DNA of 64,000 bases from assembly GCA_000004985.1 (NCBI GenBank), contig GG738887.1; one strand, written 5' to 3'. Source of the DNA: Naegleria gruberi (lineage: Eukaryota). Positions 6,001 through 64,000 of the stretch are shown here, one piece after another; the first letter of the stretch is position 1; every line of letters starts with the position of its first letter. A program made the position numbers and the translations under genes. A model generated the notes under the pieces. It saw only the letters and a list, made by a program, of their open reading frames with translations, ran no database searches and had not been told where the DNA came from.

Positions 6001-9000
6001 NNNNNNNNNNNNNNNNNNNNNNNNNNNNNNNNNNNNNNNNNNNNNNNNNNNNNNNNNNNNNNNNNNNNNNNNNNNNNNNNNNNNNNNNNNNNNNNNNNNN
6101 NNNNNNNNNNNNNNNNNNNNNNNNNNNNNNNNNNNNNNNNNNNNNNNNNNNNNNNNNNNNNNNNNNNNNNNNNNNNNNNNNNNNNNNNNNNNNNNNNNNN
6201 NNNNNNNNNNNNNNNNNNNNNNNNNNNNNNNNNNNNNNNNNNNNNNNNNNNNNNNNNNNNNNNNNNNNNNNNNNNNNNNNNNNNNNNNNNNNNNNNNNNN
6301 NNNNNNNNNNNNNNNNNNNNNNNNNNNNNNNNNNNNNNNNNNNNNNNNNNNNNNNNNNNNNNNNNNNNNNNNNNNNNNNNNNNNNNNNNNNNNNNNNNNN
6401 NNNNNNNNNNNNNNNNNNNNNNNNNNNNNNNNNNNNNNNNNNNNNNNNNNNNNNNNNNNNNNNNNNNNNNNNNNNNNNNNNNNNNNNNNNNNNNNNNNNN
6501 NNNNNNNNNNNNNNNNNNNNNNNNNNNNNNNNNNNNNNNNNNNNNNNNNNNNNNNNNNNNNNNNNNNNNNNNNNNNNNNNNNNNNNNNNNNNNNNNNNNN
6601 NNNNNNNNNNNNNNNNNNNNNNNNNNNNNNNNNNNNNNNNNNNNNNNNNNNNNNNNNNNNNNNNNNNNNNNNNNNNNNNNNNNNNNNNNNNNNNNNNNNN
6701 NNNNNNNNNNNNNNNNNNNNNNNNNNNNNNNNNNNNNNNNNNNNNNNNNNNNNNNNNNNNNNNNNNNNNNNNNNNNNNNNNNNNNNNNNNNNNNNNNNNN
6801 NNNNNNNNNNNNNNNNNNNNNNNNNNNNNNNNNNNNNNNNNNNNNNNNNNNNNNNNNNNNNNNNNNNNNNNNNNNNNNNNNNNNNNNNNNNNNNNNNNNN
6901 NNNNNNNNNNNNNNNNNNNNNNNNNNNNNNNNNNNNNNNNNNNNNNNNNNNNNNNNNNNNNNNNNNNNNNNNNNNNNNNNNNNNNNNNNNNNNNNNNNNN
7001 NNNNNNNNNNNNNNNNNNNNNNNNNNNNNNNNNNNNNNNNNNNNNNNNNNNNNNNNNNNNNNNNNNNNNNNNNNNNNNNNNNNNNNNNNNNNNNNNNNNN
7101 NNNNNNNNNNNNNNNNNNNNNNNNNNNNNNNNNNNNNNNNNNNNNNNNNNNNNNNNNNNNNNNNNNNNNNNNNNNNNNNNNNNNNNNNNNNNNNNNNNNN
7201 NNNNNNNNNNNNNNNNNNNNNNNNNNNNNNNNNNNNNNNNNNNNNNNNNNNNNNNNNNNNNNNNNNNNNNNNNNNNNNNNNNNNNNNNNNNNNNNNNNNN
7301 NNNNNNNNNNNNNNNNNNNNNNNNNNNNNNNNNNNNNNNNNNNNNNNNNNNNNNNNNNNNNNNNNNNNNNNNNNNNNNNNNNNNNNNNNNNNNNNNNNNN
7401 NNNNNNNNNNNNNNNNNNNNNNNNNNNNNNNNNNNNNNNNNNNNNNNNNNNNNNNNNNNNNNNNNNNNNNNNNNNNNNNNNNNNNNNNNNNNNNNNNNNN
7501 NNNNNNNNNNNNNNNNNNNNNNNNNNNNNNNNNNNNNNNNNNNNNNNNNNNNNNNNNNNNNNNNNNNNNNNNNNNNNNNNNNNNNNNNNNNNNNNNNNNN
7601 NNNNNNNNNNNNNNNNNNNNNNNNNNNNNNNNNNNNNNNNNNNNNNNNNNNNNNNNNNNNNNNNNNNNNNNNNNNNNNNNNNNNNNNNNNNNNNNNNNNN
7701 NNNNNNNNNNNNNNNNNNNNNNNNNNNNNNNNNNNNNNNNNNNNNNNNNNNNNNNNNNNNNNNNNNNNNNNNNNNNNNNNNNNNNNNNNNNNNNNNNNNN
7801 NNNNNNNNNNNNNNNNNNNNNNNNNNNNNNNNNNNNNNNNNNNNNNNNNNNNNNNNNNNNNNNNNNNNNNNNNNNNNNNNNNNNNNNNNNNNNNNNNNNN
7901 NNNNNNNNNNNNNNNNNNNNNNNNNNNNNNNNNNNNNNNNNNNNNNNNNNNNNNNNNNNNNNNNNNNNNNNNNNNNNNNNNNNNNNNNNNNNNNNNNNNN
8001 NNNNNNNNNNNNNNNNNNNNNNNNNNNNNNNNNNNNNNNNNNNNNNNNNNNNNNNNNNNNNNNNNNNNNNNNNNNNNNNNNNNNNNNNNNNNNNNNNNNN
8101 NNNNNNNNNNNNNNNNNNNNNNNNNNNNNNNNNNNNNNNNNNNNNNNNNNNNNNNNNNNNNNNNNNNNNNNNNNNNNNNNNNNNNNNNNNNNNNNNNNNN
8201 NNNNNNNNNNNNNNNNNNNNNNNNNNNNNNNNNNNNNNNNNNNNNNNNNNNNNNNNNNNNNNNNNNNNNNNNNNNNNNNNNNNNNNNNNNNNNNNNNNNN
8301 NNNNNNNNNNNNNNNNNNNNNNNNNNNNNNNNNNNNNNNNNNNNNNNNNNNNNNNNNNNNNNNNNNNNNNNNNNNNNNNNNNNNNNNNNNNNNNNNNNNN
8401 NNNNNNNNNNNNNNNNNNNNNNNNNNNNNNNNNNNNNNNNNNNNNNNNNNNNNNNNNNNNNNNNNNNNNNNNNNNNNNNNNNNNNNNNNNNNNNNNNNNN
8501 NNNNNNNNNNNNNNNNNNNNNNNNNNNNNNNNNNNNNNNNNNNNNNNNNNNNNNNNNNNNNNNNNNNNNNNNNNNNNNNNNNNNNNNNNNNNNNNNNNNN
8601 NNNNNNNNNNNNNNNNNNNNNNNNNNNNNNNNNNNNNNNNNNNNNNNNNNNNNNNNNNNNNNNNNNNNNNNNNNNNNNNNNNNNNNNNNNNNNNNNNNNN
8701 NNNNNNNNNNNNNNNNNNNNNNNNNNNNNNNNNNNNNNNNNNNNNNNNNNNNNNNNNNNNNNNNNNNNNNNNNNNNNNNNNNNNNNNNNNNNNNNNNNNN
8801 NNNNNNNNNNNNNNNNNNNNNNNNNNNNNNNNNNNNNNNNNNNNNNNNNNNNNNNNNNNNNNNNNNNNNNNNNNNNNNNNNNNNNNNNNNNNNNNNNNNN
8901 NNNNNNNNNNNNNNNNNNNNNNNNNNNNNNNNNNNNNNNNNNNNNNNNNNNNNNNNNNNNNNNNNNNNNNNNNNNNNNNNNNNNNNNNNNNNNNNNNNNN

Positions 9001-12000
9001 NNNNNNNNNNNNNNNNNNNNNNNNNNNNNNNNNNNNNNNNNNNNNNNNNNNNNNNNNNNNNNNNNNNNNNNNNNNNNNNNNNNNNNNNNNNNNNNNNNNN
9101 NNNNNNNNNNNNNNNNNNNNNNNNNNNNNNNNNNNNNNNNNNNNNNNNNNNNNNNNNNNNNNNNNNNNNNNNNNNNNNNNNNNNNNNNNNNNNNNNNNNN
9201 NNNNNNNNNNNNNNNNNNNNNNNNNNNNNNNNNNNNNNNNNNNNNNNNNNNNNNNNNNNNNNNNNNNNNNNNNNNNNNNNNNNNNNNNNNNNNNNNNNNN
9301 NNNNNNNNNNNNNNNNNNNNNNNNNNNNNNNNNNNNNNNNNNNNNNNNNNNNNNNNNNNNNNNNNNNNNNNNNNNNNNNNNNNNNNNNNNNNNNNNNNNN
9401 NNNNNNNNNNNNNNNNNNNNNNNNNNNNNNNNNNNNNNNNNNNNNNNNNNNNNNNNNNNNNNNNNNNNNNNNNNNNNNNNNNNNNNNNNNNNNNNNNNNN
9501 NNNNNNNNNNNNNNNNNNNNNNNNNNNNNNNNNNNNNNNNNNNNNNNNNNNNNNNNNNNNNNNNNNNNNNNNNNNNNNNNNNNNNNNNNNNNNNNNNNNN
9601 NNNNNNNNNNNNNNNNNNNNNNNNNNNNNNNNNNNNNNNNNNNNNNNNNNNNNNNNNNNNNNNNNNNNNNNNNNNNNNNNNNNNNNNNNNNNNNNNNNNN
9701 NNNNNNNNNNNNNNNNNNNNNNNNNNNNNNNNNNNNNNNNNNNNNNNNNNNNNNNNNNNNNNNNNNNNNNNNNNNNNNNNNNNNNNNNNNNNNNNNNNNN
9801 NNNNNNNNNNNNNNNNNNNNNNNNNNNNNNNNNNNNNNNNNNNNNNNNNNNNNNNNNNNNNNNNNNNNNNNNNNNNNNNNNNNNNNNNNNNNNNNNNNNN
9901 NNNNNNNNNNNNNNNNNNNNNNNNNNNNNNNNNNNNNNNNNNNNNNNNNNNNNNNNNNNNNNNNNNNNNNNNNNNNNNNNNNNNNNNNNNNNNNNNNNNN
10001 NNNNNNNNNNNNNNNNNNNNNNNNNNNNNNNNNNNNNNNNNNNNNNNNNNNNNNNNNNNNNNNNNNNNNNNNNNNNNNNNNNNNNNNNNNNNNNNNNNNN
10101 NNNNNNNNNNNNNNNNNNNNNNNNNNNNNNNNNNNNNNNNNNNNNNNNNNNNNNNNNNNNNNNNNNNNNNNNNNNNNNNNNNNNNNNNNNNNNNNNNNNN
10201 NNNNNNNNNNNNNNNNNNNNNNNNNNNNNNNNNNNNNNNNNNNNNNNNNNNNNNNNNNNNNNNNNNNNNNNNNNNNNNNNNNNNNNNNNNNNNNNNNNNN
10301 NNNNNNNNNNNNNNNNNNNNNNNNNNNNNNNNNNNNNNNNNNNNNNNNNNNNNNNNNNNNNNNNNNNNNNNNNNNNNNNNNNNNNNNNNNNNNNNNNNNN
10401 NNNNNNNNNNNNNNNNNNNNNNNNNNNNNNNNNNNNNNNNNNNNNNNNNNNNNNNNNNNNNNNNNNNNNNNNNNNNNNNNNNNNNNNNNNNNNNNNNNNN
10501 NNNNNNNNNNNNNNNNNNNNNNNNNNNNNNNNNNNNNNNNNNNNNNNNNNNNNNNNNNNNNNNNNNNNNNNNNNNNNNNNNNNNNNNNNNNNNNNNNNNN
10601 NNNNNNNNNNNNNNNNNNNNNNNNNNNNNNNNNNNNNNNNNNNNNNNNNNNNNNNNNNNNNNNNNNNNNNNNNNNNNNNNNNNNNNNNNNNNNNNNNNNN
10701 NNNNNNNNNNNNNNNNNNNNNNNNNNNNNNNNNNNNNNNNNNNNNNNNNNNNNNNNNNNNNNNNNNNNNNNNNNNNNNNNNNNNNNNNNNNNNNNNNNNN
10801 NNNNNNNNNNNNNNNNNNNNNNNNNNNNNNNNNNNNNNNNNNNNNNNNNNNNNNNNNNNNNNNNNNNNNNNNNNNNNNNNNNNNNNNNNNNNNNNNNNNN
10901 NNNNNNNNNNNNNNNNNNNNNNNNNNNNNNNNNNNNNNNNNNNNNNNNNNNNNNNNNNNNNNNNNNNNNNNNNNNNNNNNNNNNNNNNNNNNNNNNNNNN
11001 NNNNNNNNNNNNNNNNNNNNNNNNNNNNNNNNNNNNNNNNNNNNNNNNNNNNNNNNNNNNNNNNNNNNNNNNNNNNNNNNNNNNNNNNNNNNNNNNNNNN
11101 NNNNNNNNNNNNNNNNNNNNNNNNNNNNNNNNNNNNNNNNNNNNNNNNNNNNNNNNNNNNNNNNNNNNNNNNNNNNNNNNNNNNNNNNNNNNNNNNNNNN
11201 NNNNNNNNNNNNNNNNNNNNNNNNNNNNNNNNNNNNNNNNNNNNNNNNNNNNNNNNNNNNNNNNNNNNNNNNNNNNNNNNNNNNNNNNNNNNNNNNNNNN
11301 NNNNNNNNNNNNNNNNNNNNNNNNNNNNNNNNNNNNNNNNNNNNNNNNNNNNNNNNNNNNNNNNNNNNNNNNNNNNNNNNNNNNNNNNNNNNNNNNNNNN
11401 NNNNNNNNNNNNNNNNNNNNNNNNNNNNNNNNNNNNNNNNNNNNNNNNNNNNNNNNNNNNNNNNNNNNNNNNNNNNNNNNNNNNNNNNNNNNNNNNNNNN
11501 NNNNNNNNNNNNNNNNNNNNNNNNNNNNNNNNNNNNNNNNNNNNNNNNNNNNNNNNNNNNNNNNNNNNNNNNNNNNNNNNNNNNNNNNNNNNNNNNNNNN
11601 NNNNNNNNNNNNNNNNNNNNNNNNNNNNNNNNNNNNNNNNNNNNNNNNNNNNNNNNNNNNNNNNNNNNNNNNNNNNNNNNNNNNNNNNNNNNNNNNNNNN
11701 NNNNNNNNNNNNNNNNNNNNNNNNNNNNNNNNNNNNNNNNNNNNNNNNNNNNNNNNNNNNNNNNNNNNNNNNNNNNNNNNNNNNNNNNNNNNNNNNNNNN
11801 NNNNNNNNNNNNNNNNNNNNNNNNNNNNNNNNNNNNNNNNNNNNNNNNNNNNNNNNNNNNNNNNNNNNNNNNNNNNNNNNNNNNNNNNNNNNNNNNNNNN
11901 NNNNNNNNNNNNNNNNNNNNNNNNNNNNNNNNNNNNNNNNNNNNNNNNNNNNNNNNNNNNNNNNNNNNNNNNNNNNNNNNNNNNNNNNNNNNNNNNNNNN

Positions 12001-23963: not shown

Positions 23964-26900
23964 TTATTGATTATTAGAATGAGGTGTAACTTGTTCATCG
24001 GAAAAAGATATGTGTTGAGAAACTGTTGAGGGATGAATAGAAGGACGACGCTCTTGTTGCTGTTGTTGTAATTGTTGTAATTCAATAATTTCCTCCTCTG
24101 TCACCACTGTCTGGGCATGATGTTTATCTTTCAATAAATAGGTTTCACAAACACCCTTTCCTTTCACTTCAACACTTCTCTGTTCAAATTCAAATCCAAT
24201 ATCATACACTCTCTGATAGGTCGATCTGGAAATTTGAATTCTTCCTGCCATTGAAGTTGATTCCATTCGAGAAGCAGTATTGATAGTATCACCCCATAAA
24301 TCATAGGCAAACTTCTTCTTTCCAATCACACCAGCAACAACTGATCCTGTATTGATTCCAACTCGAATATTCAATTGATTTTGAGGATGTTCAATATTAT
24401 AATTTCTAATTACTTGAAATGTATCAATTGCAAATCTCAATGTTCTTTCAGGATGATCAGATTGTGGATTATTATGTAAACCTCCAACACAGAAATAGGC
24501 ATCACCAATTGTCTTGATCTTTTCCAATGAATAAACATCTGTCAAATCATCAAATCCATTCACAATGGATGACAACATCAAAACCAATTCGCTTGGATTC
24601 ATTCCACTTGACATTTTCGTAAAACCAACCATATCACTAAAGAAACAAGTAATATCACTAAATCTCTCAGCAATAAATGTCTCACCTGATTTCAACTTGC
24701 TTGCAACAGCATCTGGCAAGATATTTCTCAATAAATTTTCAGAATTTTTCTTCTCCTCCGCTAGAAGTGAATTTTGCTTCTTCTCTGGAGTGATATCTCT
24801 CATAAAGCATGAAACAACCATTGAGTTACTCTTTCCCTTGTCAGAGCTGCCAGAAATTCTCGAAACAAAGATGGTGACCATGGCTGGAAACTTTGTGGAA
24901 TTCTTTCTAACACATTCCAATTCAATAACATCTCCATGTTTGACATTTTCATCAATTTCACTCTTGATTGTTTTCAAAATGTTGGACAACTTTTCACCAG
25001 AGTGCTCATCAAATAAATGCATAAAGTTTGTTCCCAGAACATCAGAAATTGACTTTCCGAACATGTTCTGAGCTGGTCCATTGAATAGAATGATATCTCC
25101 ATTTTCGTTTGCTAATAGTGCACCATCTACCATTGAACTCATTAATTTCTTCAAAGAATCTTGATCTGTAGCTGAGGATTGTTTTAGCTTTCGTCCAGTC
25201 AAATAGTTCGTTCCAATAGAGTTGTACAAGGCAAAACTCTTGAGTCCATCATTTGATTCTATGAATTCTGTGGACAGATAATTCAGGAATGCTTTCATAT
25301 TGGTTATTTCGTGATCATAGGTTTGGAAACTGATGAAAATCATGTATTGTAATATGAGCATTGAAGTTATACCGAAAATCAAGAATACAATTGAAATTGT
25401 AGTGGAAGGAAGAGATGTCAAACTGACCAATGTTGTGAGAAAATCTCTAAACTTGTCATAAACCATATCACACATATTAAATAGTGTTAGCAATTCTGCG
25501 AATGCTTCTTCAGATTGTGTTGAAGCATAGGAAGGATTGAAGAACTTCTCGCTCACTTGTCCTGCCAGTATTGTGAATGTAGACATGTACTTTTGAAGGC
25601 CATAACAATCTTTTAACAATTCATTACTTTGTCCAATAATTTTGTTTCCATTAGATTTCCAATTATAGTCAATGGAGGAATTGGTGCAAGTCGATAGACC
25701 AGTAATAATCTTATCTAATTTGGAGTATTTCCCAACGAGTGGTGTTGTTATTCCATCTTGGCCATAAATAACCTGATCATAAATGGTTGCCGACAAATCA
25801 ATGAATTGTCTGATTTCTGTTTTCATTGTTTGCAATTGTGAATTATTCGAAACCAAAAATGGGCTGTTAATGAATTTTCCAGATGGCAATGACAAGTAAA
25901 TAAACAATTCATTCAGTCTAATAGTAACTCTATGAACTGTTCTCAAAAATACACTCAGCAAATCAACATTGTAAATGGCAGATGAAGCAGTTGAAATATT
26001 CATTGAAATTTCATAATAAATCAAACCAGAAGACAACATGAAAACTGTCACAATTAGAAGTGCCAATATCAGAGAGAAGGCCTTTGGTTGCAAGAGAGGA
26101 TTTTTCTTCAAGTGCTTGGCATCATCTTTTGTCTTTTCTTCTAATTTGTGATAAATTATTCCAACAAAATCTTTTGGAATTTTCTTGTACAGAGATGTGA
26201 TCTTACTGAACCATGTCATCTCACTCCTTGAAATCAAAATGAAAATAACGTAAATCATCGTCATTACTGAGGAGGATGTGAAAATATAGGCCAATAAAAT
26301 AATATTCAACTGGTGAGTGTTTGCTCTTTCGCTTTCCTGGAATGACTTGCAGAATTGGAGATAATTATCGGCTAAATATCTTCTATTTAAATAAATGTAC
26401 ATGAAACTGTAACTCTTTGTTGTTTCATTGTATTGCTTTTCTCCAAAGTTCAAAAATTGCTCAACATGATGCAAGAATTCTTGAGAAACTTCACTCATTG
26501 AAACATTTTTTGAGAAGGTGTTTACAAATTCAATTGATTTAGGATCTGTTGTTGAAATTGGAATTAAAATTGGACTTGCTCTCTCTGTAAAGTCATTATA
26601 CATGTTACTTGTAAATTTACCAGATTGTGAATTGGAAATTAATGTTTCCAAATACCCCTTATGCTCCAAATATCGATTTCTGAAGGTTGATGTGAAATAA
26701 TTCAATTCATACATTCGACTCGAGTTCTTTAACCATGATTGTCCTTCATTTGCGTAAACCTCTGTCAAGATTTGATTCATTCTTGCAACTCTTAGTAATG
26801 CACCTGGTGTTGAACCAGGAATGCAACTCTGCAATACAAGAGGAGTAGAAACAACTCTCTCATTATAAACAATACTCAGAATGAAAATGACAATTAACAA

Positions 26901-29279
26901 GACATGCATCAAAACTGACAAGAATAGAAAGACTGAGATTCTCAGTTTGGATTGGAATGGAGCATTGATGGCAGTTCTGAAGAAGGTTTCCTTCTTGTCA
27001 ATTCCTTGATTTTCGACACCTTCGAAATCCATCTCATTCCCATTGAATTGACTTTTTCCATTTAGGGCTGAACCACTTTCATCTCTTTCAGTACTAATAT
27101 CTTCATTATTGGTGGACATTTCCACATTGGATGAGGGCACAATCTTATTCTTGAATTTCTTTGCTTCGTAATATGATTGTGGATTGTGATGATTGACATT
27201 CTTTGATCTCGATTCTTCTTCTTCCATTGCAGCTGCTTCTTCAAACAATGAAGTAGATAGTTCCTTATCGAATTTGAATTCCTCAAGGTAGGACGCATAA
27301 AAACGAATCACTGTCTTATCGTGACTGTGAGCTTTGGTAAGATTGAGGAAATTCTGGTCACAGAATAGTGTTAGGACAGAAGCTCTGCTATTAATTTGTG
27401 AAAGTTTGGTTTCGTTTGGAATATCGTTCAACATTTCCTTCCAGAATGATTTATGAACAATTCGAAGCTCAGCAAGGGTTATTTCTAATTCTGTAATTGT
27501 GTTTCTTACTTCCATATTTGTCTTGGTTAGCTCGTTGAGTGTAATTTCAATTTCTTTTTGTTTTTCAGTGATAAGAACTCTCTTTAAAGTTTGATGACAA
27601 TGTTTAAGAGCCTTTGCCAGTAGATAATTTGCAAATTGAGATCTGTGATCATCTTGCCAAATGTAGTTGACCAAAACACTTGAAATGAGCAACATTTCAG
27701 TATTAAGGAAGGATTTCTGCTGAGAAATGGATTTCACAAAAGCAATAGCCATTAATGGATCACTGACAATAGTCACACCGTAATGATCGGGGGAGTGATG
27801 TTTCACATTTTGCCCAATTGAAAATTGTAAAAACAACATCAAGTGTCTTAGAGATAATTGTTCACAAACAATGAAAATGGGAACTGCCTCTCTTTCAATA
27901 ATGTTGTAAAGTGATAAATCTGCTCTGCTCTCAGTTATTTCACAGACACTAATCTTGGTTTTGAAAATATTTCTTATTTGTCTGCAAACAACAAGTGTGT
28001 AAATTTCCAAAGCAGTAAAAGCAAGAATGAAAAATAGAATTCCCAATCCAATACTCAATCCCATCATTCCAAGACCCAAATCACTCAACAGATTTACATT
28101 GACCAATGAGCTAATCAATACTCCAATACTAACTCCAAATCTTGCACAAACAATTCCAAAATAGAGTGAATTCATCATTCGATGATAGAATGGTAAACTG
28201 TAAATGACGAGAGGAATGTTGATAAAGCTCAAAATGAGATGAACAATCGCTCTCCCCATCATGTAATTCGGTGGAATGAAGAACATGATTAACAATTCCA
28301 ATCCTATCGTGCAAATGGTTGGTGCCAATATAAAGTTATCCTTCGTCACAAAAGGAATTCCAACATTGGGTGTATTGATTGGCAATAAAAACACAGAGAA
28401 ACTCCAACTCACAAATGTAATCATCATTCCAATCAAACTCATGACAATTAAAATAGTATTTGTTTTAGAATAACATTGAACTGATGGAAATCTTGACAAT
28501 CCAGAAACACTTGCTGTCTGATCTTCGACATTGATTTGAATATTTGGATTACAATCAACAAAACTGCTCATAATAAATAAGGCAACTGGTCCAATAAACG
28601 ATACTACTAATGAACAATACATCCCAACCTTGTCAAATATTTTGTAAATTCCTTCACATCTCTTCTTCATTCCAATAATCATCAAGATAATATTCACCAA
28701 TGAAATCAATGTAAATAGGACAGAAAGTGCAATTATTCCCTCATAAGGAATGGCATCTGTTGATAAAGTGAGTGGATAATTCAATACTCTAAATACCCAT
28801 CCTCCTTCAAATCCAAACGGTGAAGTATTATATTCATTATTTATGGTACTATTAGATGAAAGTATACTAGAATACTCCTGATGAGAAGTCAATGCAGGTA
28901 ACCACATTCCAATCCACAACATGTATAAAAACCATAACGATATAGCCAATCTAGCCAGTCGTATCTTCCACGGGACTGTTACAGGCAAACCTTCTACATA
29001 GCTGCCTTTGCTGTTGCTAAACCTTGTGAGGGTGTTCATCCTCATCTTGCTACATAAATACATCATTGATAGATATTCATTAAAGGTTTTGAATAAGGAG
29101 CTGGCAAAAGAGGCAGAAGTTATTGAAGAACCACCATCTGATGAAGAGGTGGAAATAGATGATCTTCTGCCTAATGTTGATTCCATTCTTTTCTTGTTGT
29201 TGAATAAATTATATTCATGCCAACAGCATTGGCATTGTAGTTTTTGATAGGTTTTGCCAGGAGAAGATGTGAACCACAT
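23964..29279 (-). CDS. Polytopic membrane PAS-domain class III adenylyl cyclase (single catalytic domain, homodimer type); apparently intronless
   Basis: Continuous 1786-codon minus-strand ORF. The ORF-track start at 29324 is TTG; the first in-frame ATGs are at 29279 (MWFTSS) and 29186 (MESTLGRRSS, A-rich context). There are two hydrophobic blocks (about 8 and about 5 predicted TM helices) separated by a roughly 400 aa cytosolic coiled-coil region. A PAS-like segment (GALLANENGDIILFNGPAQNMFGKSISDVLG...) follows. The cyclase homology domain carries all canonical residues: FFSDMVGFT and KTIGDAY (two metal Asp), K immediately before TIG and YDLWG (Lys/Asp, ATP specificity), and NTASRME (Asn/Arg). 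The C-terminal poly-Q tail ends SNNQ-TAA at 23964. Confidence 0.85.
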   Translation of the reverse strand: MWFTSSPGKTYQKLQCQCCWHEYNLFNNKKRMESTLGRRSSISTSSSDGGSSITSASFASSLFKTFNEYLSMMYLCSKMRMNTLTRFSNSKGSYVEGLPVTVPWKIRLARLAISLWFLYMLWIGMWLPALTSHQEYSSILSSNSTINNEYNTSPFGFEGGWVFRVLNYPLTLSTDAIPYEGIIALSVLFTLISLVNIILMIIGMKKRCEGIYKIFDKVGMYCSLVVSFIGPVALFIMSSFVDCNPNIQINVEDQTASVSGLSRFPSVQCYSKTNTILIVMSLIGMMITFVSWSFSVFLLPINTPNVGIPFVTKDNFILAPTICTIGLELLIMFFIPPNYMMGRAIVHLILSFINIPLVIYSLPFYHRMMNSLYFGIVCARFGVSIGVLISSLVNVNLLSDLGLGMMGLSIGLGILFFILAFTALEIYTLVVCRQIRNIFKTKISVCEITESRADLSLYNIIEREAVPIFIVCEQLSLRHLMLFLQFSIGQNVKHHSPDHYGVTIVSDPLMAIAFVKSISQQKSFLNTEMLLISSVLVNYIWQDDHRSQFANYLLAKALKHCHQTLKRVLITEKQKEIEITLNELTKTNMEVRNTITELEITLAELRIVHKSFWKEMLNDIPNETKLSQINSRASVLTLFCDQNFLNLTKAHSHDKTVIRFYASYLEEFKFDKELSTSLFEEAAAMEEEESRSKNVNHHNPQSYYEAKKFKNKIVPSSNVEMSTNNEDISTERDESGSALNGKSQFNGNEMDFEGVENQGIDKKETFFRTAINAPFQSKLRISVFLFLSVLMHVLLIVIFILSIVYNERVVSTPLVLQSCIPGSTPGALLRVARMNQILTEVYANEGQSWLKNSSRMYELNYFTSTFRNRYLEHKGYLETLISNSQSGKFTSNMYNDFTERASPILIPISTTDPKSIEFVNTFSKNVSMSEVSQEFLHHVEQFLNFGEKQYNETTKSYSFMYIYLNRRYLADNYLQFCKSFQESERANTHQLNIILLAYIFTSSSVMTMIYVIFILISRSEMTWFSKITSLYKKIPKDFVGIIYHKLEEKTKDDAKHLKKNPLLQPKAFSLILALLIVTVFMLSSGLIYYEISMNISTASSAIYNVDLLSVFLRTVHRVTIRLNELFIYLSLPSGKFINSPFLVSNNSQLQTMKTEIRQFIDLSATIYDQVIYGQDGITTPLVGKYSKLDKIITGLSTCTNSSIDYNWKSNGNKIIGQSNELLKDCYGLQKYMSTFTILAGQVSEKFFNPSYASTQSEEAFAELLTLFNMCDMVYDKFRDFLTTLVSLTSLPSTTISIVFLIFGITSMLILQYMIFISFQTYDHEITNMKAFLNYLSTEFIESNDGLKSFALYNSIGTNYLTGRKLKQSSATDQDSLKKLMSSMVDGALLANENGDIILFNGPAQNMFGKSISDVLGTNFMHLFDEHSGEKLSNILKTIKSEIDENVKHGDVIELECVRKNSTKFPAMVTIFVSRISGSSDKGKSNSMVVSCFMRDITPEKKQNSLLAEEKKNSENLLRNILPDAVASKLKSGETFIAERFSDITCFFSDMVGFTKMSSGMNPSELVLMLSSIVNGFDDLTDVYSLEKIKTIGDAYFCVGGLHNNPQSDHPERTLRFAIDTFQVIRNYNIEHPQNQLNIRVGINTGSVVAGVIGKKKFAYDLWGDTINTASRMESTSMAGRIQISRSTYQRVYDIGFEFEQRSVEVKGKGVCETYLLKDKHHAQTVVTEEEIIELQQLQQQQQERRPSIHPSTVSQHISFSDEQVTPHSNNQ

Positions 29280-29885
29280 GTGTTGTATGAAACATGTAAT
29301 ATTTCCAAACTTCGGCCAATCCAAGTAGATATGAGAAGTGATGATGTTTTTGGTTTTAGTACTTTAAAGACATTCCAGTAAGATTGAAATACTAAAGCGA
29401 TGATTCCTTAATGTAATAAATACAAAAGTAATTCGAATCACGATGAAGATTGTTGATCGAATCTATCCAAATGTTCTTGGCACGCCTAATATTTATCAAA
29501 ATGTCTACTTTGATAAACATCATAGTTTGATTGCTTTTAAAACAAATCATGCACATTACTAAATTATTACTGCACTTGTTAATAGGAAATTAGAGCCTTC
29601 CGTCGTTCATATGAACTATTTTTGTTACATTTGATTATGAATAATACTAATATTGCTCATGTCTCTACACTTGCCTCCTTCATTGTGATATTTTTTAAAT
29701 AATTAATATTAATAAATATTGAAACTTTAAAATTTTTTAACAAAAGATAAATTGTGGAAAGTAACGATTTTGATCAATCCCAACAAATTTGTTGCTGTCT
29801 CCGAAGCAAAAGAACAAATCATCACACAATATTGAAAGAACAGTAAATTTCAAGAGCGCCAAAATACAAAAGATTTTTAAAAAAT

Positions 29886-51256: not shown

Positions 51257-53735
51257 ATGAAAGTAAAACCAATTACCACATCAGACGAATCAGACGAAAT
51301 ACATTCGAATATCTCAGAGCAACTCTTACAAGCCACCAAAAAAAAAAGACCCTACGAAGGATTACTTCCTCTCAATCTATTCATTGTATCAACAATTTCC
51401 CTACTCATCCTCGCAGGTTGTCTATTCGTTTGGATTGCTTCCTTCTCAGTGACCAGCAATTCCATTCAAAATTTGAATGCCAAATTTATTGATGAATCAG
51501 GTCAGAAAATTAAGAATAGTTTACATGGATATATTGATCCAATTGCAAAACTTACAAAAATGATGGCTAGAGATTGGAATTCACAAGCTGTCAATTTAAC
51601 TCAATTAAGAGAATACTTGTTTCCTAAATTTGTGGAATTTGGTGCCAATGGGTGTGGATATTTCTTTAATGATACGTATTCGTATAGATATACCTATACG
51701 GTGAGTGGTACTGCAAGTAATCCAATAACTGGTAAGTTTGTTCTACTTTCGAATAGTTTCATACTAAACACTTTTGATAGTTTATGCACAACAACCGTAT
51801 GGATATGTTGGAACCATAAGAGATTTAGTCAATAACAATACTGGAGAAGTAACCAAGTACAATTATCAAGTCGATACAAAACCAATTATCATGACCACTC
51901 AAGATTTTTGGATCTATCTCAATAATTCATATGTCAATTATGGATTGGATGGAGTGGTTGGTGAACCGTACAGATCTATCGGTTCTACAATGGCCATTTA
52001 TTATGCAAAATGGATTTACGATCAACAATTGTACAAGGCAACCAAAACTAAACGTATTATTGGACTAGCTAAAGTCAACCTAGCTCTGGATGCAATTGTT
52101 ACCTTTTTATCTCAAATTGAATTATTAGGAAAAGGATATGTTCTAGTGACACTCAATTCTGGAACTGTCATTGGTGGTTCCATAAACACAACTGTCAATG
52201 ATGGGTTGACCAGTGTACATGTATTTGATTTGGAAACAAGAGGAGCAGGAAAACTAATCAAGAGGTTCTATGAGGTGAATGGCAACACTTTCAGTACATT
52301 TAAAAGTACCAATACGAAACTGAGTAGTGAAGGAGCATCATACATTGTCACTCCAATGAAATTCTCATATGAAAATTTGGAGTGGAATATTTTCTTTGTT
52401 TTATACGATTCTGATGTGAATGAACCAATGATTTTGAGTTCTTCCATAAGTATTGGTGTAACGGTGGTGATTGTCATTGTTGGTATTTGTTCTAGTTTGA
52501 TAACTGGTATGATTGTTTCAAAACCAATGAAATTTTTAGAGAAACAATTCGAAAGTATTAGAATTATGGATTTGGAAGCTGTAGTTCTATCAAACAAGTC
52601 AGTGTTCAAGGAAGTTGACTCAATATTTGGAAATTTGTACGACACTGTCATGTGGCTGAAAGAAATTAAGGCCTTTATCCCAGAATATGTCTTTGAACAA
52701 ATCAAACAAAACGAAACTATTAGTATCAAGAGTGAAACTGCACAAAATGCATCAGCAGCAACCAAAAAGAAACCAGAAAAGGAAGCTGATAACTTTTCTC
52801 ATTCATCTTCCTCTCTTGCCAACAAGTCAAATTCTCCAACTGAGAGTTCAGGAAATAATTCCTCAGTTAAGAGCTCATTTAAAACAGCGCAGAATTTATT
52901 TAAAATGGGCTATAGTAAGAGGAATTGTGTAGTTGTCCATGTCAAATTGGAAGGATTGATTGGTGGAGGTCATGAATTCATTTCTACATTTTTCAAAGAT
53001 TTCATTTCAGCAATTGCACCTGTCATTAAGGTCAATCAGGCCACTCTGCAAGTAATGAACTGTGATGAATTCCAGCTATCAATGGCTTCCAACAAGATTG
53101 AGGCTAAAGTTCTGGATAAGGCCATTGATTGTGCATTAAAGATTATTAAGGCCTCTGGAAAGGATGTATGTCCAAGAATTGGAATCTGTTACGGACCTTG
53201 TCATATTGGAAATATTGGAACAAACACATCAAGATACTATTCAGTTGTTGGAAGAGTTCCAGAGACTGCTAAATTATATGCAGAATTGGCTGGAAAGTAC
53301 AATGTTAAAATAATTACTGACACAACTCAATTGCCACTAGATTCGTATATCAATAGACCATTGGATAGAGTAGAAGTGAAATCTGACATTGTAACCATTT
53401 ACCAAATCATTGACAAGAAGAATACTGAAAACGATGAGTGGCTCTATGAATTAGAAAATTCAAAGAAGAATAACAAGTACCAAGATTTTAATGAAATCTT
53501 TCAATTATTCCAACCTTCCTATTGGAATGATTTCAAACAGGATCCTTTCCCTGTCATTGATAAATGCAGAGGAATATTGGAGAAATTCAAGAAGGAAGAA
53601 TTCAATGAGCATAGTGATTTGTCTTGTGATGAATTGTTGGCTCTTTTCAGTAACTTGCCAAACAGTGTTCAGGTGAATGAATTGAGTACTCGACTTACAA
53701 GTTATTCGAAAAAACTCTATGTAGAACTGAAATAA
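51257..53735 (+). CDS. Receptor-type membrane protein with degenerate class III cyclase-homology domain (pseudo-cyclase); 2 exons
   Basis: The first ATG is at 51257 (A9 context; the ORF-track 51218 start is TTG). Exon 1 is 51257-51731. Intron is 51732-51780 (GTAAGT...TTTTGATAG, 49 bp, contains ATACTAAAC, phase 1). Exon 2 is 51781-53735. The topology is a short N-terminus, TM1 (LLPLNLFIVSTISLLILAGCLFVWIASF), an extracytoplasmic domain of about 320 aa, TM2 (ILSSSISIGVTVVIVIVGICSSLITGMIV), a linker, a Ser-rich region, then a cyclase-like domain. There, FADIVGFT is replaced by HVKLEGL (first metal Asp lost) and KTIGDAYM by VMNCDEFQL. RIGICYGPCHIGNIG is kept. VNTASRME is replaced by VPETAKLYAE (Asn and Arg lost). 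Confidence 0.72.
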
Positions 53736-58375: not shown

Positions 58376-59614
58376 ATGAAGGTTTCCACTACCGTGATGA
58401 TGGCCATTCTCTTGGCCTTGGCATTGTCAACTTTCGTAGTTGCCTCAAGTCCATTTGATTCTTTGGCAGATGCCATTGTCGAAGCTATCTATGTCAGAAG
58501 ATTGCCAAGATCAAACTCATACGGAAGATCCAGATCTACCAGAAGCAGTGGCAGATCTACCAGAGGAGGAAGATCCACCAGATCCACTTCTAGAAGCAGT
58601 GGAAGATCAACTCGTGGTGGTAAGTCAACTAGAGGAGGAAAATCCAACAGAGGTGGTAAATCTGGTAAATCAGGCAAATCTGGTAAATCTGGAAAATCTG
58701 GAAAATCTGGAAAATCAGGTAAATCAGGTAAATCTGGTAAGGGTAAGAAGGGTAAATCTGGAAAATCTGGAAAATCAGGTAAGGGTGGTAAATCTGGAAA
58801 ATCAGGAAAGGGAAAGAAGGATAAGAAGAATGGAAAAGGAAAGAAGGATAAGAAGAATAAGAAAGATAAGAAAGACAAGAAGGATAAAAAGAATAAGAAG
58901 GACAAGAAGGACAAGAAGAATCAACAAGGTCAACAAAATGGTGAAAATCCACAACAAGAAAATGGTCAACCTCAAAATTCTGAAAATCCACAACAAGAAG
59001 CTCCACCACAACAAGAAAATGGTCAACAAAATGGAGAAAATCAACAACCAGAACAACCAGAACAATCTCAACAAGAACAACAACCACAAAATGAAGCTCA
59101 AACCATGAATAATAATGAAGGAAGTTGTGGACAACAGTAAGTATCAATGTTAATATTGTAAATTTCTAATTTTGGAAATAGATATCCATCATTCAAACAA
59201 TGTGGTCAATCATGGAGTTCTCAATTAATTAGCTCCAAGTCAATCTGTAATTCTGGATGTTTAATCACTTCTTTGTGTATGGCTTTGAATGGACGTGGTA
59301 AGACAAGCATGAATCCAGGTCAATTCACACAATGGTTGAAATCAAATAGAGGATTGAGTGGTAATTATCTTGTTTGGGGTGCTGCATCCAAGTTTGGTAT
59401 TTCCTATCATGGTAAGGTTAAGGGAACTTCAACTATTTCTCAAAAGCTCTGTGCTGGAAACATTGTCATTCTCAATGTCAAGAATGGTGGACACTGGGTT
59501 TTGGCCACAGGTTACGATCCAAGTACTCAAACTTTCTCAGTCAATGATCCTGGAAGTTCTACCAAGTCCAGTTATCCTGCCAGAGAAGTTGTTCAAGCTG
59601 CTATTTACAATTAA
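58376..59614 (+). CDS. Secreted highly cationic repeat protein (RS/G repeats, (SGK)n, (KKDKK)n, Q/N/E/P-rich) with C-terminal CHAP/C39-like papain-fold (Cys...His) domain; 2 exons
   Basis: ATG at 58376. The signal peptide is MKVSTTVMMAILLALALSTFVVASS. Exon 1 is 58376-59136 (phase 2; the ORF-track stop TAA lies inside the GTAAGT donor). Intron is 59137-59181 (GTAAGT...GAAATAG, 45 bp). Exon 2 is 59182-59614, in frame with ORF 59273-59614. The exon-2 domain is QYPSFKQCGQSWSSQLISSKSICNSGCLITSLCMALNGRG...NGGHWVLATGYDPSTQTF, with the Cys in a QCGQ context and the His in a GHWV context, as in CHAP / C39-like amidases. Confidence 0.7.
58560..59100 (+). repeat. Coding tandem repeats inside the preceding gene: 9-bp (TCTGGWAAA)n encoding (SGK)n, (AAGRAYAAG)n encoding K/D runs, and CAACAAGAAAATGGT-type units
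   Basis: Directly visible periodicity at 58640-58800 (tctggtaaa / tctggaaaa / tcaggtaaa units), 58800-58920 (aagaaggataag...) and 58920-59100 (caacaagaaaatggtcaac...). It generates three spurious minus-strand ORFs (58489-58914, 58629-59147, 58802-59134). Confidence 0.85.
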
Positions 59615-60662
59615 ATATTTTTCATTTGGTGGCATTGCATTTTGCTAATATTTCCTTGTCATCTCAATTCGAATGGTTTATTTCAAAACTTCGAATGTTA
59701 CCATTCACTTTGTAAAATTGCTCCTAATTTCATATTACAAAGACATGATTTTGATCATGATGAGTAAGGAACCTTGTTCCACTGTTCCAGGCAATTATTC
59801 GAATAAAATACTACCATAAATATAGAATATGTTGAGAAAGGTGTTTGAGGTGAACAACAAGAGCAAAACCAGAGCCAAAAGTCATATTTTGTGTGGTGGT
59901 TAAAGATTTAACTCTTTCTTCCTTATTTCAATTCAGATAGTGTGCAAAATTTGTACAACACTTCCAAATAGTCATGATATCAATCCCTCCTCATATCATG
60001 AAGTGAGGAATCATATTTATATGAAGAATAAGCTCCTTTCTTTTGTCATTTCTTTTCTCTCTATCCTCTTTAGTTGTGGATAGGATTTCCAAATCTTGAA
60101 TCCTTGATTCAAACTATCAACACCATTGAAATAAAACTGTCTCATATATGTTGTCATTAAATCTGAGACTTCCTTTCGAATAGTTGAGTTTTCATCTAGA
60201 AAATAAACTTGTCCATTATACGAACAACTCCAAATGCAAAATAAGTTTTTAATCTGATTGCAGAAACTTGTTCAGCATTTCAAGCAACATACCTCATCCT
60301 TTGGATGAAGAATATGTTGAGTGAGCTTCTACCTATTGGTTTCTTTATTGTTTTATTTGGAGAAATACCATTAAAGCAGGTACCAAGGCTGAATCACCTC
60401 AAAGATGAAACAGTCCCTGAGCTTTAATACCCATTAGTATAATTACATGCTCTCAATCTTGTTTTTATTAATTTGCAATATAACATTTTGTTAATTGTTT
60501 TTTGGTGGGAACTCATTCTAGAATTCAAGTCCATTACCGTGTTGCACCTCTGTTCTTCTTCTTTCCAGTTCAACCCAAAGTAACAAAAGAACCTTGGAGT
60601 TCATTTAACCGTGATTTCTGATTCCATTTTGCCAACTGTACCATGTTATCATGATAAACTCT

Positions 60663-60670
60663 ATAAATAC
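60663..60670 (+). promoter_or_regulatory. TATA box (TATAAATA) about 60 bp upstream of the 60729 start codon
   Basis: ctcTATAAATAcgag at 60661-60674. The ATG at 60729 is in an A-rich leader. Confidence 0.35.
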
Positions 60671-60728
60671 GAGTCCAATAACATGACACAACCCAAAACC
60701 AACTTCAAAAAAACAAGTCAACCAACAA

Positions 60729-61325
60729 ATGCCTCCACCACCTCCACCAAGCCATAATAGCATTATTAGTACTTCTCAAGGATTTACTCCACCACCTCCT
60801 GGAATAAACAGTTCTTTCAAAGTAGGAGGAGGCACTCCACCACCTCCTGGATCATTCTCTCCAATGATTCAAGATCCAGTTTCCATTCCAGTGATTGGAG
60901 GAAAGGTCAATAAGGTTCACACAAAAAAGTCAACAAAACAGTACATTAATGTGAGAGAAATTATTGGACCAAAAGATGTTTTCCAAGCATTGAGAATTGC
61001 TCCATCAGTTTTTAAGGAATTATTTGGAGTTTCTTATCCAAATAATTCAGAATATTTGGAAGGTCAACAAATTGCTCAAGTTGTCTTTGAAGATTTCGAA
61101 TTAAATTTGATTTGGGCGAGGGATATGAGTCAAACTGATGATTCGTATGCAGTTCCATATGCCATGACTGATAGTACTCATGCCTTGTGGGAATTGTTGG
61201 GAAATAATGGTTTCGAATTGAGAGATTCGAGAAATTATCTCACCTATCAAACTAATAGAGTGAGCAGATTTAATGGAAGAATGTTGTGCGAAAGAGTATT
61301 CGAAAGAGACCTTTCCAAAATGTAG
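60729..61325 (+). CDS. Proline-rich N-terminus protein, 198 aa, unknown function
   Basis: ATG at 60729 (MPPPPPPSHN..., three poly-Pro tracts of profilin/SH3-ligand type), followed by a globular about 140 aa region with no recognised motif. Confidence 0.5.
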   Translation: MPPPPPPSHNSIISTSQGFTPPPPGINSSFKVGGGTPPPPGSFSPMIQDPVSIPVIGGKVNKVHTKKSTKQYINVREIIGPKDVFQALRIAPSVFKELFGVSYPNNSEYLEGQQIAQVVFEDFELNLIWARDMSQTDDSYAVPYAMTDSTHALWELLGNNGFELRDSRNYLTYQTNRVSRFNGRMLCERVFERDLSKM

Positions 61326-61724
61326 TTTATTCTTGATTCCACTTTTAACATATAAACTAAACATTTCGAATAATTATTTGCGAAGTTTATGAAATAAACG
61401 TAGTTTTACTCTCTCGGAACCTTAATGTTCTTTCGGAATTAATTTGAGACTTCAAATATTCCGAAAGGTATAAATGGGAAGTAGAATCAACAAGTGTTAA
61501 AACCATCTTTTATTACACAAAACAAAAGAAATATCCAAATGTCACAATTGTATTTTAAATCAAGAAATGAATTATCAGAGTGCTCTATTGATCAATACAC
61601 CCTCCCTTTACCCTCCCTTAAAATAATGTGAAAGAACATGTTGTGAATACATAGCACGGCTATGTAATTGAGGATAACTAAATTTTTGAATAGGAATTGT
61701 ATCCCTCCCTTACGATTGGCATAG

Positions 61725-62971
61725 NNNNNNNNNNNNNNNNNNNNNNNNNNNNNNNNNNNNNNNNNNNNNNNNNNNNNNNNNNNNNNNNNNNNNNNNNNNN
61801 NNNNNNNNNNNNNNNNNNNNNNNNNNNNNNNNNNNNNNNNNNNNNNNNNNNNNNNNNNNNNNNNNNNNNNNNNNNNNNNNNNNNNNNNNNNNNNNNNNNN
61901 NNNNNNNNNNNNNNNNNNNNNNNNNNNNNNNNNNNNNNNNNNNNNNNNNNNNNNNNNNNNNNNNNNNNNNNNNNNNNNNNNNNNNNNNNNNNNNNNNNNN
62001 NNNNNNNNNNNNNNNNNNNNNNNNNNNNNNNNNNNNNNNNNNNNNNNNNNNNNNNNNNNNNNNNNNNNNNNNNNNNNNNNNNNNNNNNNNNNNNNNNNNN
62101 NNNNNNNNNNNNNNNNNNNNNNNNNNNNNNNNNNNNNNNNNNNNNNNNNNNNNNNNNNNNNNNNNNNNNNNNNNNNNNNNNNNNNNNNNNNNNNNNNNNN
62201 NNNNNNNNNNNNNNNNNNNNNNNNNNNNNNNNNNNNNNNNNNNNNNNNNNNNNNNNNNNNNNNNNNNNNNNNNNNNNNNNNNNNNNNNNNNNNNNNNNNN
62301 NNNNNNNNNNNNNNNNNNNNNNNNNNNNNNNNNNNNNNNNNNNNNNNNNNNNNNNNNNNNNNNNNNNNNNNNNNNNNNNNNNNNNNNNNNNNNNNNNNNN
62401 NNNNNNNNNNNNNNNNNNNNNNNNNNNNNNNNNNNNNNNNNNNNNNNNNNNNNNNNNNNNNNNNNNNNNNNNNNNNNNNNNNNNNNNNNNNNNNNNNNNN
62501 NNNNNNNNNNNNNNNNNNNNNNNNNNNNNNNNNNNNNNNNNNNNNNNNNNNNNNNNNNNNNNNNNNNNNNNNNNNNNNNNNNNNNNNNNNNNNNNNNNNN
62601 NNNNNNNNNNNNNNNNNNNNNNNNNNNNNNNNNNNNNNNNNNNNNNNNNNNNNNNNNNNNNNNNNNNNNNNNNNNNNNNNNNNNNNNNNNNNNNNNNNNN
62701 NNNNNNNNNNNNNNNNNNNNNNNNNNNNNNNNNNNNNNNNNNNNNNNNNNNNNNNNNNNNNNNNNNNNNNNNNNNNNNNNNNNNNNNNNNNNNNNNNNNN
62801 NNNNNNNNNNNNNNNNNNNNNNNNNNNNNNNNNNNNNNNNNNNNNNNNNNNNNNNNNNNNNNNNNNNNNNNNNNNNNNNNNNNNNNNNNNNNNNNNNNNN
62901 NNNNNNNNNNNNNNNNNNNNNNNNNNNNNNNNNNNNNNNNNNNNNNNNNNNNNNNNNNNNNNNNNNNNNNN
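61725..62971. other. Assembly gap (run of N)
   Basis: n characters from 61725 to 62971. The ORFs of X residues in the ORF track are artefacts of this gap. Confidence 0.97.
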
Positions 62972-63562
62972 GGAGATATTTCAAAACATAAAATAAATTA
63001 TATTTTCGAGATGTACTATTGATTTACAACCGATTGATATGTATTTTGTAGATTGACGATGTGGTTCTCTATATATATTCAAGATTTCCTCCTGATCTTC
63101 CAAGACAACCTTGAAATTTCACCCTTTACCTTACTGAAAGATAGAATATTCACCAAAATGTCTTAAAATTGAACCATATACATTATTTGAGATGTTGAAC
63201 ATGGTGGTAGAGTTGCATAGAGTGGTCATTTTCCAGATTTTCATCCATGTACACAGTTGACTAGTTGGTATGTTAGAGTTGAAATCATGAATATGAAAGT
63301 GAAAATAAACTTAATATTCTATCTCTACTCATCGAATGGAGCATTTTCATATATATATTGTTGATTGAAGTGATGTATTTGATAGAGTTGGTCTGACTTG
63401 TCTTTCTCTAAAGTCAACCATAAAATATCAACATTTACCTTTCCATGGTACCATTTCTGATTTTTATGATATGAAATTGAATTCTATATCATTATATATC
63501 ATCTACATCATTTTGGTAAAGTTTCAATAGGTGGTCCTTTTCCAGATTTCCACCTTTTCAGG

Positions 63563-64000
63563 TTGGGTTTTTAGGTTTGGGTTTGGGTTTGGGTATGGCG
63601 AAAGGGTTTGGGTTTGGGTTTGGGTTTGGGTTTGGGTTTGGGTTTGGGTTTGGGTTTGGGTTTGGGTTTGGGTTTGGGTTTGGGTTTGGGTTTGGGTTTG
63701 GGTTTGGGTTTGGGTTTGGGTTTGGGTTTGGGTTTGGGTTTGGGTTTGGGTTTGGGTTTGGGTTTGGGTTTGGGTTTGGGTTTGGGTTTGGGTTTGGGTT
63801 TGGGTTTGGGTTTGGGTTTGGGTTTGGGTTTGGGTTTGGGTTTGGGTTTGGGTTTGGGTTTGGGTTTGGGTTTGGGTTTGGGTTTGGGTTTGGGTTGGGT
63901 TTGGGTTTGGGTTGGGTTTGGGTTTGGGTTGGGTTTGGGTTTGGGTTTGGGTTTGGGTTTGGGTTTGGGTTTGGGTTTGGGTTTGGGTTTGGGTTTGGGT
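63563..64000 (+). repeat. (GGGTTT)n = (TTTGGG)n hexamer array of about 70 copies running to the end of the window; telomere-like
   Basis: A degenerate start (ggtttttaggtttgggtttgggtatggcgaaagggttt) becomes a near-perfect GGGTTT array from about 63601. A few GGGTT variants occur near 63890-63940. The G-rich strand runs 5'->3' toward the scaffold end, as expected for a right-hand telomere. Confidence 0.8.

Follow-up and report, generated by a model that had tools for sequence, protein, structure and literature searches.

TTTGGG repeats at a scaffold end of Naegleria gruberi: anatomy of a probable telomeric tract

Introduction

When a genome scaffold stops inside a tandem repeat, the repeat can be the chromosome end itself or the place where the assembler came to a halt. 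This question is raised by the stretch of DNA of 64,000 nucleotides analysed here (hereafter the window), the last bases of which are occupied by a polar array of the hexamer TTTGGG. An earlier note made from the letters alone had proposed either a lineage-specific telomere motif or an internal hexanucleotide satellite that happens to terminate the scaffold, and had called the unit uncommon, reported as a variant in Paramecium. The unit is indeed unusual, but it is not confined to Paramecium, since its report from Naegleria gruberi dates from 2013 (PMC3622300).

In that work, Fulneckova et al. (Genome Biol Evol 2013, PMC3622300) surveyed 143 genome assemblies for possible telomere repeats; for N. 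gruberi they proposed TTTGGG, after viewing scaffold ends of the very assembly to which the window belongs. Where string searches failed, the 5' and 3' scaffold ends were viewed by eye and the terminal or internal distribution of the repeat was then judged. N. gruberi is included in their summary figure, which is restricted to genomes with a convincing terminal pattern, and the authors state that the terminal position still needs experimental confirmation. In the literature searched, this was the only paper found on the subject: no later study dealt with the telomeres, telomerase or TERT of either Naegleria or Heterolobosea, and for Naegleria neither a TERT nor a telomerase RNA nor an activity of the enzyme was on record. 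The N. gruberi repeat is also absent from the main texts of the TeloBase paper and of a 2025 telomerase-RNA review. Nanopore or PacBio reads of N. gruberi exist (PMC12695648). TTTGGG in N. gruberi has been published since 2013 as an in-silico candidate only, and the feature is not new. What is new here is the fine anatomy of one end, i.e., its junction, its 48-unit core, its TTGGG units, its 0.6-kb non-coding flank and the gap behind it.

Results

Host identity and neighbouring genes

Five open reading frames (ORFs) in the window match, at every residue, annotated proteins of Naegleria gruberi (NAEGRDRAFT_71009, 51323, 71014, 71015 and 71023), all of them on one scaffold of 508,457 bp, and the organism is therefore N. 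gruberi and not a ciliate. The ORFs use standard stop codons and reach 1,786 aa (table 11), which argues against a ciliate with reassigned TAA and TAG. The gene content comprises a PAS-domain adenylate/guanylate cyclase with a TmcB-type region, an NHL-repeat protein and a trypsin-like protease, a combination that we take to fit Naegleria.

Some of these genes deserve a remark of their own. The 1,786-aa ORF of the PAS-domain adenylate/guanylate cyclase (23964-29324, minus strand) has its 3' (C-terminal) end cut off by the first run of N. A second, weak cyclase domain lies in a 653-aa ORF at 51774-53735, where it matches no more than the C-terminal part of the Guanylate_cyc profile (E=1.3e-5). 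This ORF, situated with the large PAS-cyclase in one subtelomeric stretch of 40 kb, may represent a paralogous cyclase in degenerate or pseudo-cyclase form. The gene at 58376-59140 starts with a signal-peptide-like segment and has long low-complexity tracts (SGK/KDKK/QQ-rich), which are encoded by nested tandem repeats of 9, 27 and 69 nt (TRF, 58524-58936); an exact match to an annotated protein was not found for it.

The first gene inward from the array, at a distance of about 2.2 kb, is the proline-rich NAEGRDRAFT_71023 (Table 1), and three further scaffolds of N. gruberi carry paralogues that are at least 90% identical to it. The duplicated block around it measures just about 0.95 kb (60428-61378), and a metagenome contig from the environmental run ERR1078381 (L001) matches 60523-61378 at 98.4% identity with different flanks. 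A shared subtelomeric block was considered for this segment and rejected: the block is short and the flanks of the environmental copy are unrelated, so that 60428-61378 is a dispersed repeat and provides no evidence on telomeres. The presence of copies of the repeat in ERR1078381 (contigs L001 and L002) implies that a close relative of N. gruberi lived in that sample.

Window layout and subtelomeric flank

The window opens with 23,941 N, followed by 37,783 bp of sequence (23942-61724, 33.5% GC), a gap of 1,247 N and finally a contig of 1,029 bp (62972-64000) that carries the array. The N runs at 1-23941 and 61725-62971 leave more than one third of the window without information, and the terminal contig is tied to the scaffold body solely by scaffolding links across the gap. 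The coordinates of the features around the end are collected in Table 1.

Table 1. Features around the distal end of the window (window coordinates)
Feature	Coordinates	Strand	Basis
Last annotated gene before the end, NAEGRDRAFT_71023, 198 aa	60729..61325	+	Exact protein match
Assembly gap, 1247 N, between scaffold body and telomeric contig	61725..62971	.	N-run map
Non-coding subtelomeric flank, 591 bp, 30.3% GC	62972..63562	.	GC count, ORF scan, self-comparison
Degenerate telomere-proximal junction, 44 nt: TTGGG TTTTTAGG (TTTGGG)3 TATGGCGAAAGGG	63563..63606	+	Direct reading and unit parse
Perfect (TTTGGG)48 core, longest perfect run	63607..63894	+	Script search; inside TRF array
Distal part of the array, up to the last base of the window	63895..64000	+	Direct reading and unit parse

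The unique flank resembles in its base composition the nearby non-coding DNA (32.1% GC in 61379-61724). It contains no ORF of 50 aa or longer wholly inside it, and it has no match elsewhere in the window. Within the flank itself, three collinear self-matches are offset by 309-312 nt. The longest covers 80 nt with 75% identity (E=1e-8), a short one of 31 nt reaches 81%, and the third, of 68 nt and 68% identity, stands at chance level when taken alone (E=1.8). On the weak evidence of these alignments, the flank appears to be made up of a unit of about 310 bp present in two diverged tandem copies. The second of these adjoins the array junction, and both copies terminate in GGTGGTC(A/C)TTTTCCAGATTT. 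Rfam and tRNA scans of the window gave no match, and there is therefore no candidate for a telomerase RNA inside it.

Anatomy of the array

TRF reported a single array at 63570-64000 (period 6, 72.2 copies, 96% matches, score 797, consensus TTTGGG), and a unit-by-unit parse of 63540-64000 yielded 66 TTTGGG and four TTGGG units. The roughly 70 hexamers placed by the earlier note at 63563-64000, and the occasional TTGGG variants it had seen among them, were thus recovered with the same count and coordinates. No TTGGGG unit occurs in the array. With 218 G, 214 T, 5 A and 1 C on the plus strand of 63563-64000, this short-unit tandem array has the strong G/C strand asymmetry of a telomere tract. 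The telomere orientation described beforehand was likewise borne out, as all G-rich units lie on the plus strand and run to base 64000; the G-rich strand has the 5' to 3' polarity of a telomere relative to the visible end of the contig and of the window, an orientation that by itself has a prior of 50%.

The array, at least 431 nt long, occupies the final base of the window and is preceded on its proximal side by the unique flank. Its degenerate proximal boundary, which had also been noticed before, lies at 63563-63606 and gives way to the 48-unit perfect run, the order seen in telomeres, with three distal TTGGG units as the exception. These start at 63895, 63912 and 63929, and each is followed by two normal units, so that the series TTGGG TTTGGG TTTGGG occurs three times with an exact period of 17 nt near the contig end (63895-63933). 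Eleven perfect TTTGGG units come next, and a single T at base 64000 closes the contig.

The repeat is confined to this end of the window. When (TTTGGG)2 was sought with at most one mismatch, all 65 matches in the window were on the plus strand and within 63570-63999, while shuffled sequences led us to expect 0.32. A repeat search of the window sequence found neither a second TTTGGG array nor any CCCAAA array, and TTAGGG repeats were absent from the window as well. Single TTTGGG hexamers (6 vs 6.3 expected) and CCCAAA hexamers (9 vs 6.8 expected) are at chance level across the 37.8 kb that are unique. The earlier note had named internal arrays as one finding that would speak against a telomere, and none lies in these 37.8 kb.

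TTTGGG arrays in environmental contigs

JGI metagenome contigs were scanned for (TTTGGG)6, which gave at least 120 loci and 125 arrays among the matches listed. Among these 125 arrays, 91 are internal, 26 terminal with the G strand outward and eight terminal in the wrong orientation. The WGS set JAESGV01 stands apart: 13 of its 13 listed contigs with (TTTGGG)6 (L008, L030, L032, L043, L055, L078, L079, L083, L084, L085, L103, L116 and L121) bear a terminal array of 42-133 nt whose G strand points outward, next to a different unique sequence in each. Judged from this placement, the environmental eukaryote or eukaryotes behind JAESGV01 appear to use TTTGGG as a telomere repeat. A test for a ciliate genetic code on these contigs returned AT-rich read-through ORFs only and was uninformative. 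The arrays of JAESGV01 provide supporting context, in that TTTGGG serves as a chromosome-end repeat in nature, and have no direct bearing on N. gruberi. Relatives of Naegleria were also considered as the source of the metagenomic loci and rejected, as none of the 120 loci among the matches listed resembles the N. gruberi window at the DNA or protein level.

One of the JAESGV01 contigs, L085, is of interest for its gene content (229-11497). A Ty3/gypsy-like pol ORF with reverse transcriptase, RNase H and integrase begins 229 nt from the array-bearing contig end and behind it come two DYW-type PPR genes that lack introns (982 and 931 aa). Their best named homologues are plant PPR proteins, at merely 22-25% identity. 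To our knowledge, DYW-type PPR genes are rare outside land plants.

Discussion

The array at 63563-64000 is very probably a telomeric repeat tract at one chromosome end of N. gruberi, made by telomerase. What the present analysis contributes to this reading is the anatomy of the sequence, its polarity, the identity of the species and the lack of internal copies in the window. The notion of a lineage-specific telomere motif is supported in the same way, by the N. gruberi identity, the published candidate (PMC3622300), the polarity, the junction and the restriction of the repeat to the end of the window. The occurrence of the same repeat at several N. gruberi ends is taken from the literature, namely from one in-silico paper (PMC3622300) that most likely had 63563-64000 among the ends it scored.

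By analogy with other eukaryotes, we infer how such an end would be built and protected. The G-rich (TTTGGG)n strand would run 5' to 3' to the chromosome end on the terminal contig of the 508-kb scaffold and would be lengthened by a telomerase with an RNA template for TTTGGG. The template is predicted to be a permutation of CCCAAA in 1.5 copies, e.g., CCCAAACCC. As elsewhere among eukaryotes, the tract would end in a G-rich 3' overhang and could be capped by sequence-specific telomere-binding proteins. The degenerate junction would then represent decayed old telomeric units, no longer renewed, at the border with the AT-rich non-coding subtelomere of about 0.6 kb; such a degenerate proximal junction is typical of telomere-subtelomere boundaries.

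The array might instead be an interstitial telomere-like block or an ordinary hexanucleotide satellite, with the scaffold ending there because the assembler could not pass it. The array touches base 64000 and its distal side is out of view, internal (TTTGGG)n of at least six units is common in environmental contigs (the 91 of 125 arrays among the matches listed), and many genomes have internal blocks of their own telomere repeat (PMC3622300). Against this, the array extends over at least 431 nt with a 48-unit perfect core vs 24-133 nt for the internal metagenome arrays, a comparison limited by their short-read assembly; the polarity is correct and the degeneracy sits on the proximal side, the side that is in view; no further copies occur in 37.8 kb; and the N. 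gruberi pattern was classed as terminal (PMC3622300). We consider an internal satellite improbable on this balance. A different objection concerns the contig and accepts the tract as a real telomere: scaffolding could have misplaced the 1029-nt contig, which would then come from another chromosome end or from a contaminant read. It is about as long as one Sanger read, is linked only across the 1247-N gap, and its unique part is without a match elsewhere in the window, but this part has 30.3% GC, like the 32.1% of the neighbouring N. gruberi non-coding DNA (61379-61724), and TTTGGG is reported for N. gruberi itself (PMC3622300). Contamination by a Paramecium telomere of mixed TTGGGG and TTTGGG is excluded, as the array contains no TTGGGG unit. 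The chance that the contig is misplaced or foreign seems to us very slight.

The manner of upkeep is a further point on which the telomerase reading could fail, for chromosome ends might also keep up a terminal TTTGGG tract through recombination or gene conversion with one another, with no telomerase involved. Templated synthesis usually yields just such a tract, in which a short G-rich unit is highly homogeneous and strictly polar, and telomerase-independent systems typically have long or complex units. The flank, with its diverged tandem duplication of about 310 bp, could offer a substrate for recombination, and no telomerase component or activity of Naegleria was found in the literature searched; missing literature is, however, not evidence of absence, and the homogeneous short unit of the array makes upkeep by recombination unlikely. 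Maintenance of this kind is highly improbable in our judgement, and the telomerase-made tract is the reading that we retain.

Within the telomerase reading, the TTGGG units call for caution. The earlier note had taken them as traces of an error-prone telomerase, which is unproven, and base-calling error could equally explain them. The three distal units sit 924, 941 and 958 nt into the 1029-nt Sanger-era contig, and they are doubtful because Sanger base-calling is least reliable there in a homopolymer-rich repeat, if the read starts at the contig start. They may thus be base-calling errors of a read tail rather than errors of telomerase. It is possible that a telomerase skipping one template position would yield TTGGG, and the 17-nt recurrence is either a real higher-order pattern or a systematic loss of one T in the read tail. 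We regard it as rather unlikely that everything holds together, i.e., that TTTGGG is the true telomere of N. gruberi from a CCCAAA-template telomerase and that the fine structure, both the 17-nt TTGGG recurrence and the degenerate junction, is real and records slippage or skipping on the template. If this were true, the TTGGG pattern and the junction would give the template permutation with which the first heterolobosean telomerase RNA could be sought; we know of no telomerase RNA from any heterolobosean.

The array marks one N. gruberi scaffold end as a probable true chromosome end and offers base-level confirmation of a motif known in the literature only as an in-silico candidate. Beyond this bookkeeping it is of little import, as the sequence supplies just the motif, which was already available.

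Comparison with known telomere repeats places the array among familiar types. TTAGGG is the commonest and probably ancestral telomere repeat of eukaryotes and is also found in trypanosomatids. The N. gruberi unit shares with it the hexamer length, the GGG block and the polarity, and differs by one base, A to T. For Excavata, TTAGGG was inferred to be ancestral and replaced later (PMC3622300). The TTGGGG of the Tetrahymena type and the TTTTGGGG of spirotrichs resemble the present unit in being TnGm repeats that lack A. Units of this kind presumably form G-quadruplexes. They differ from the N. gruberi unit in their T and G counts (T3G3 here), and the Discoba lineage is unrelated to theirs.

The macronuclear telomeres of Paramecium are a random mixture of TTGGGG and TTTGGG, a variation put down to infidelity of telomerase (bioRxiv 10.1101/2025.11.06.686955). 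TTTGGG hexamers at ends with the G-rich strand outward are common to both systems, whereas the N. gruberi array lacks TTGGGG and has the 5-nt TTGGG as its sole variant, and its host is a heterolobosean with standard stop codons and not a ciliate. A mixed telomere of the Paramecium type was rejected for this array on both counts, the units being 66 TTTGGG and four TTGGG with zero TTGGGG, and the host being N. gruberi. The closest counterpart is the N. gruberi candidate of the 2013 survey (PMC3622300), from which the array shows no substantive difference: species, unit, scaffold-end location and assembly generation are the same. The feature is real and ordinary, with nothing unusual beyond the published candidate.
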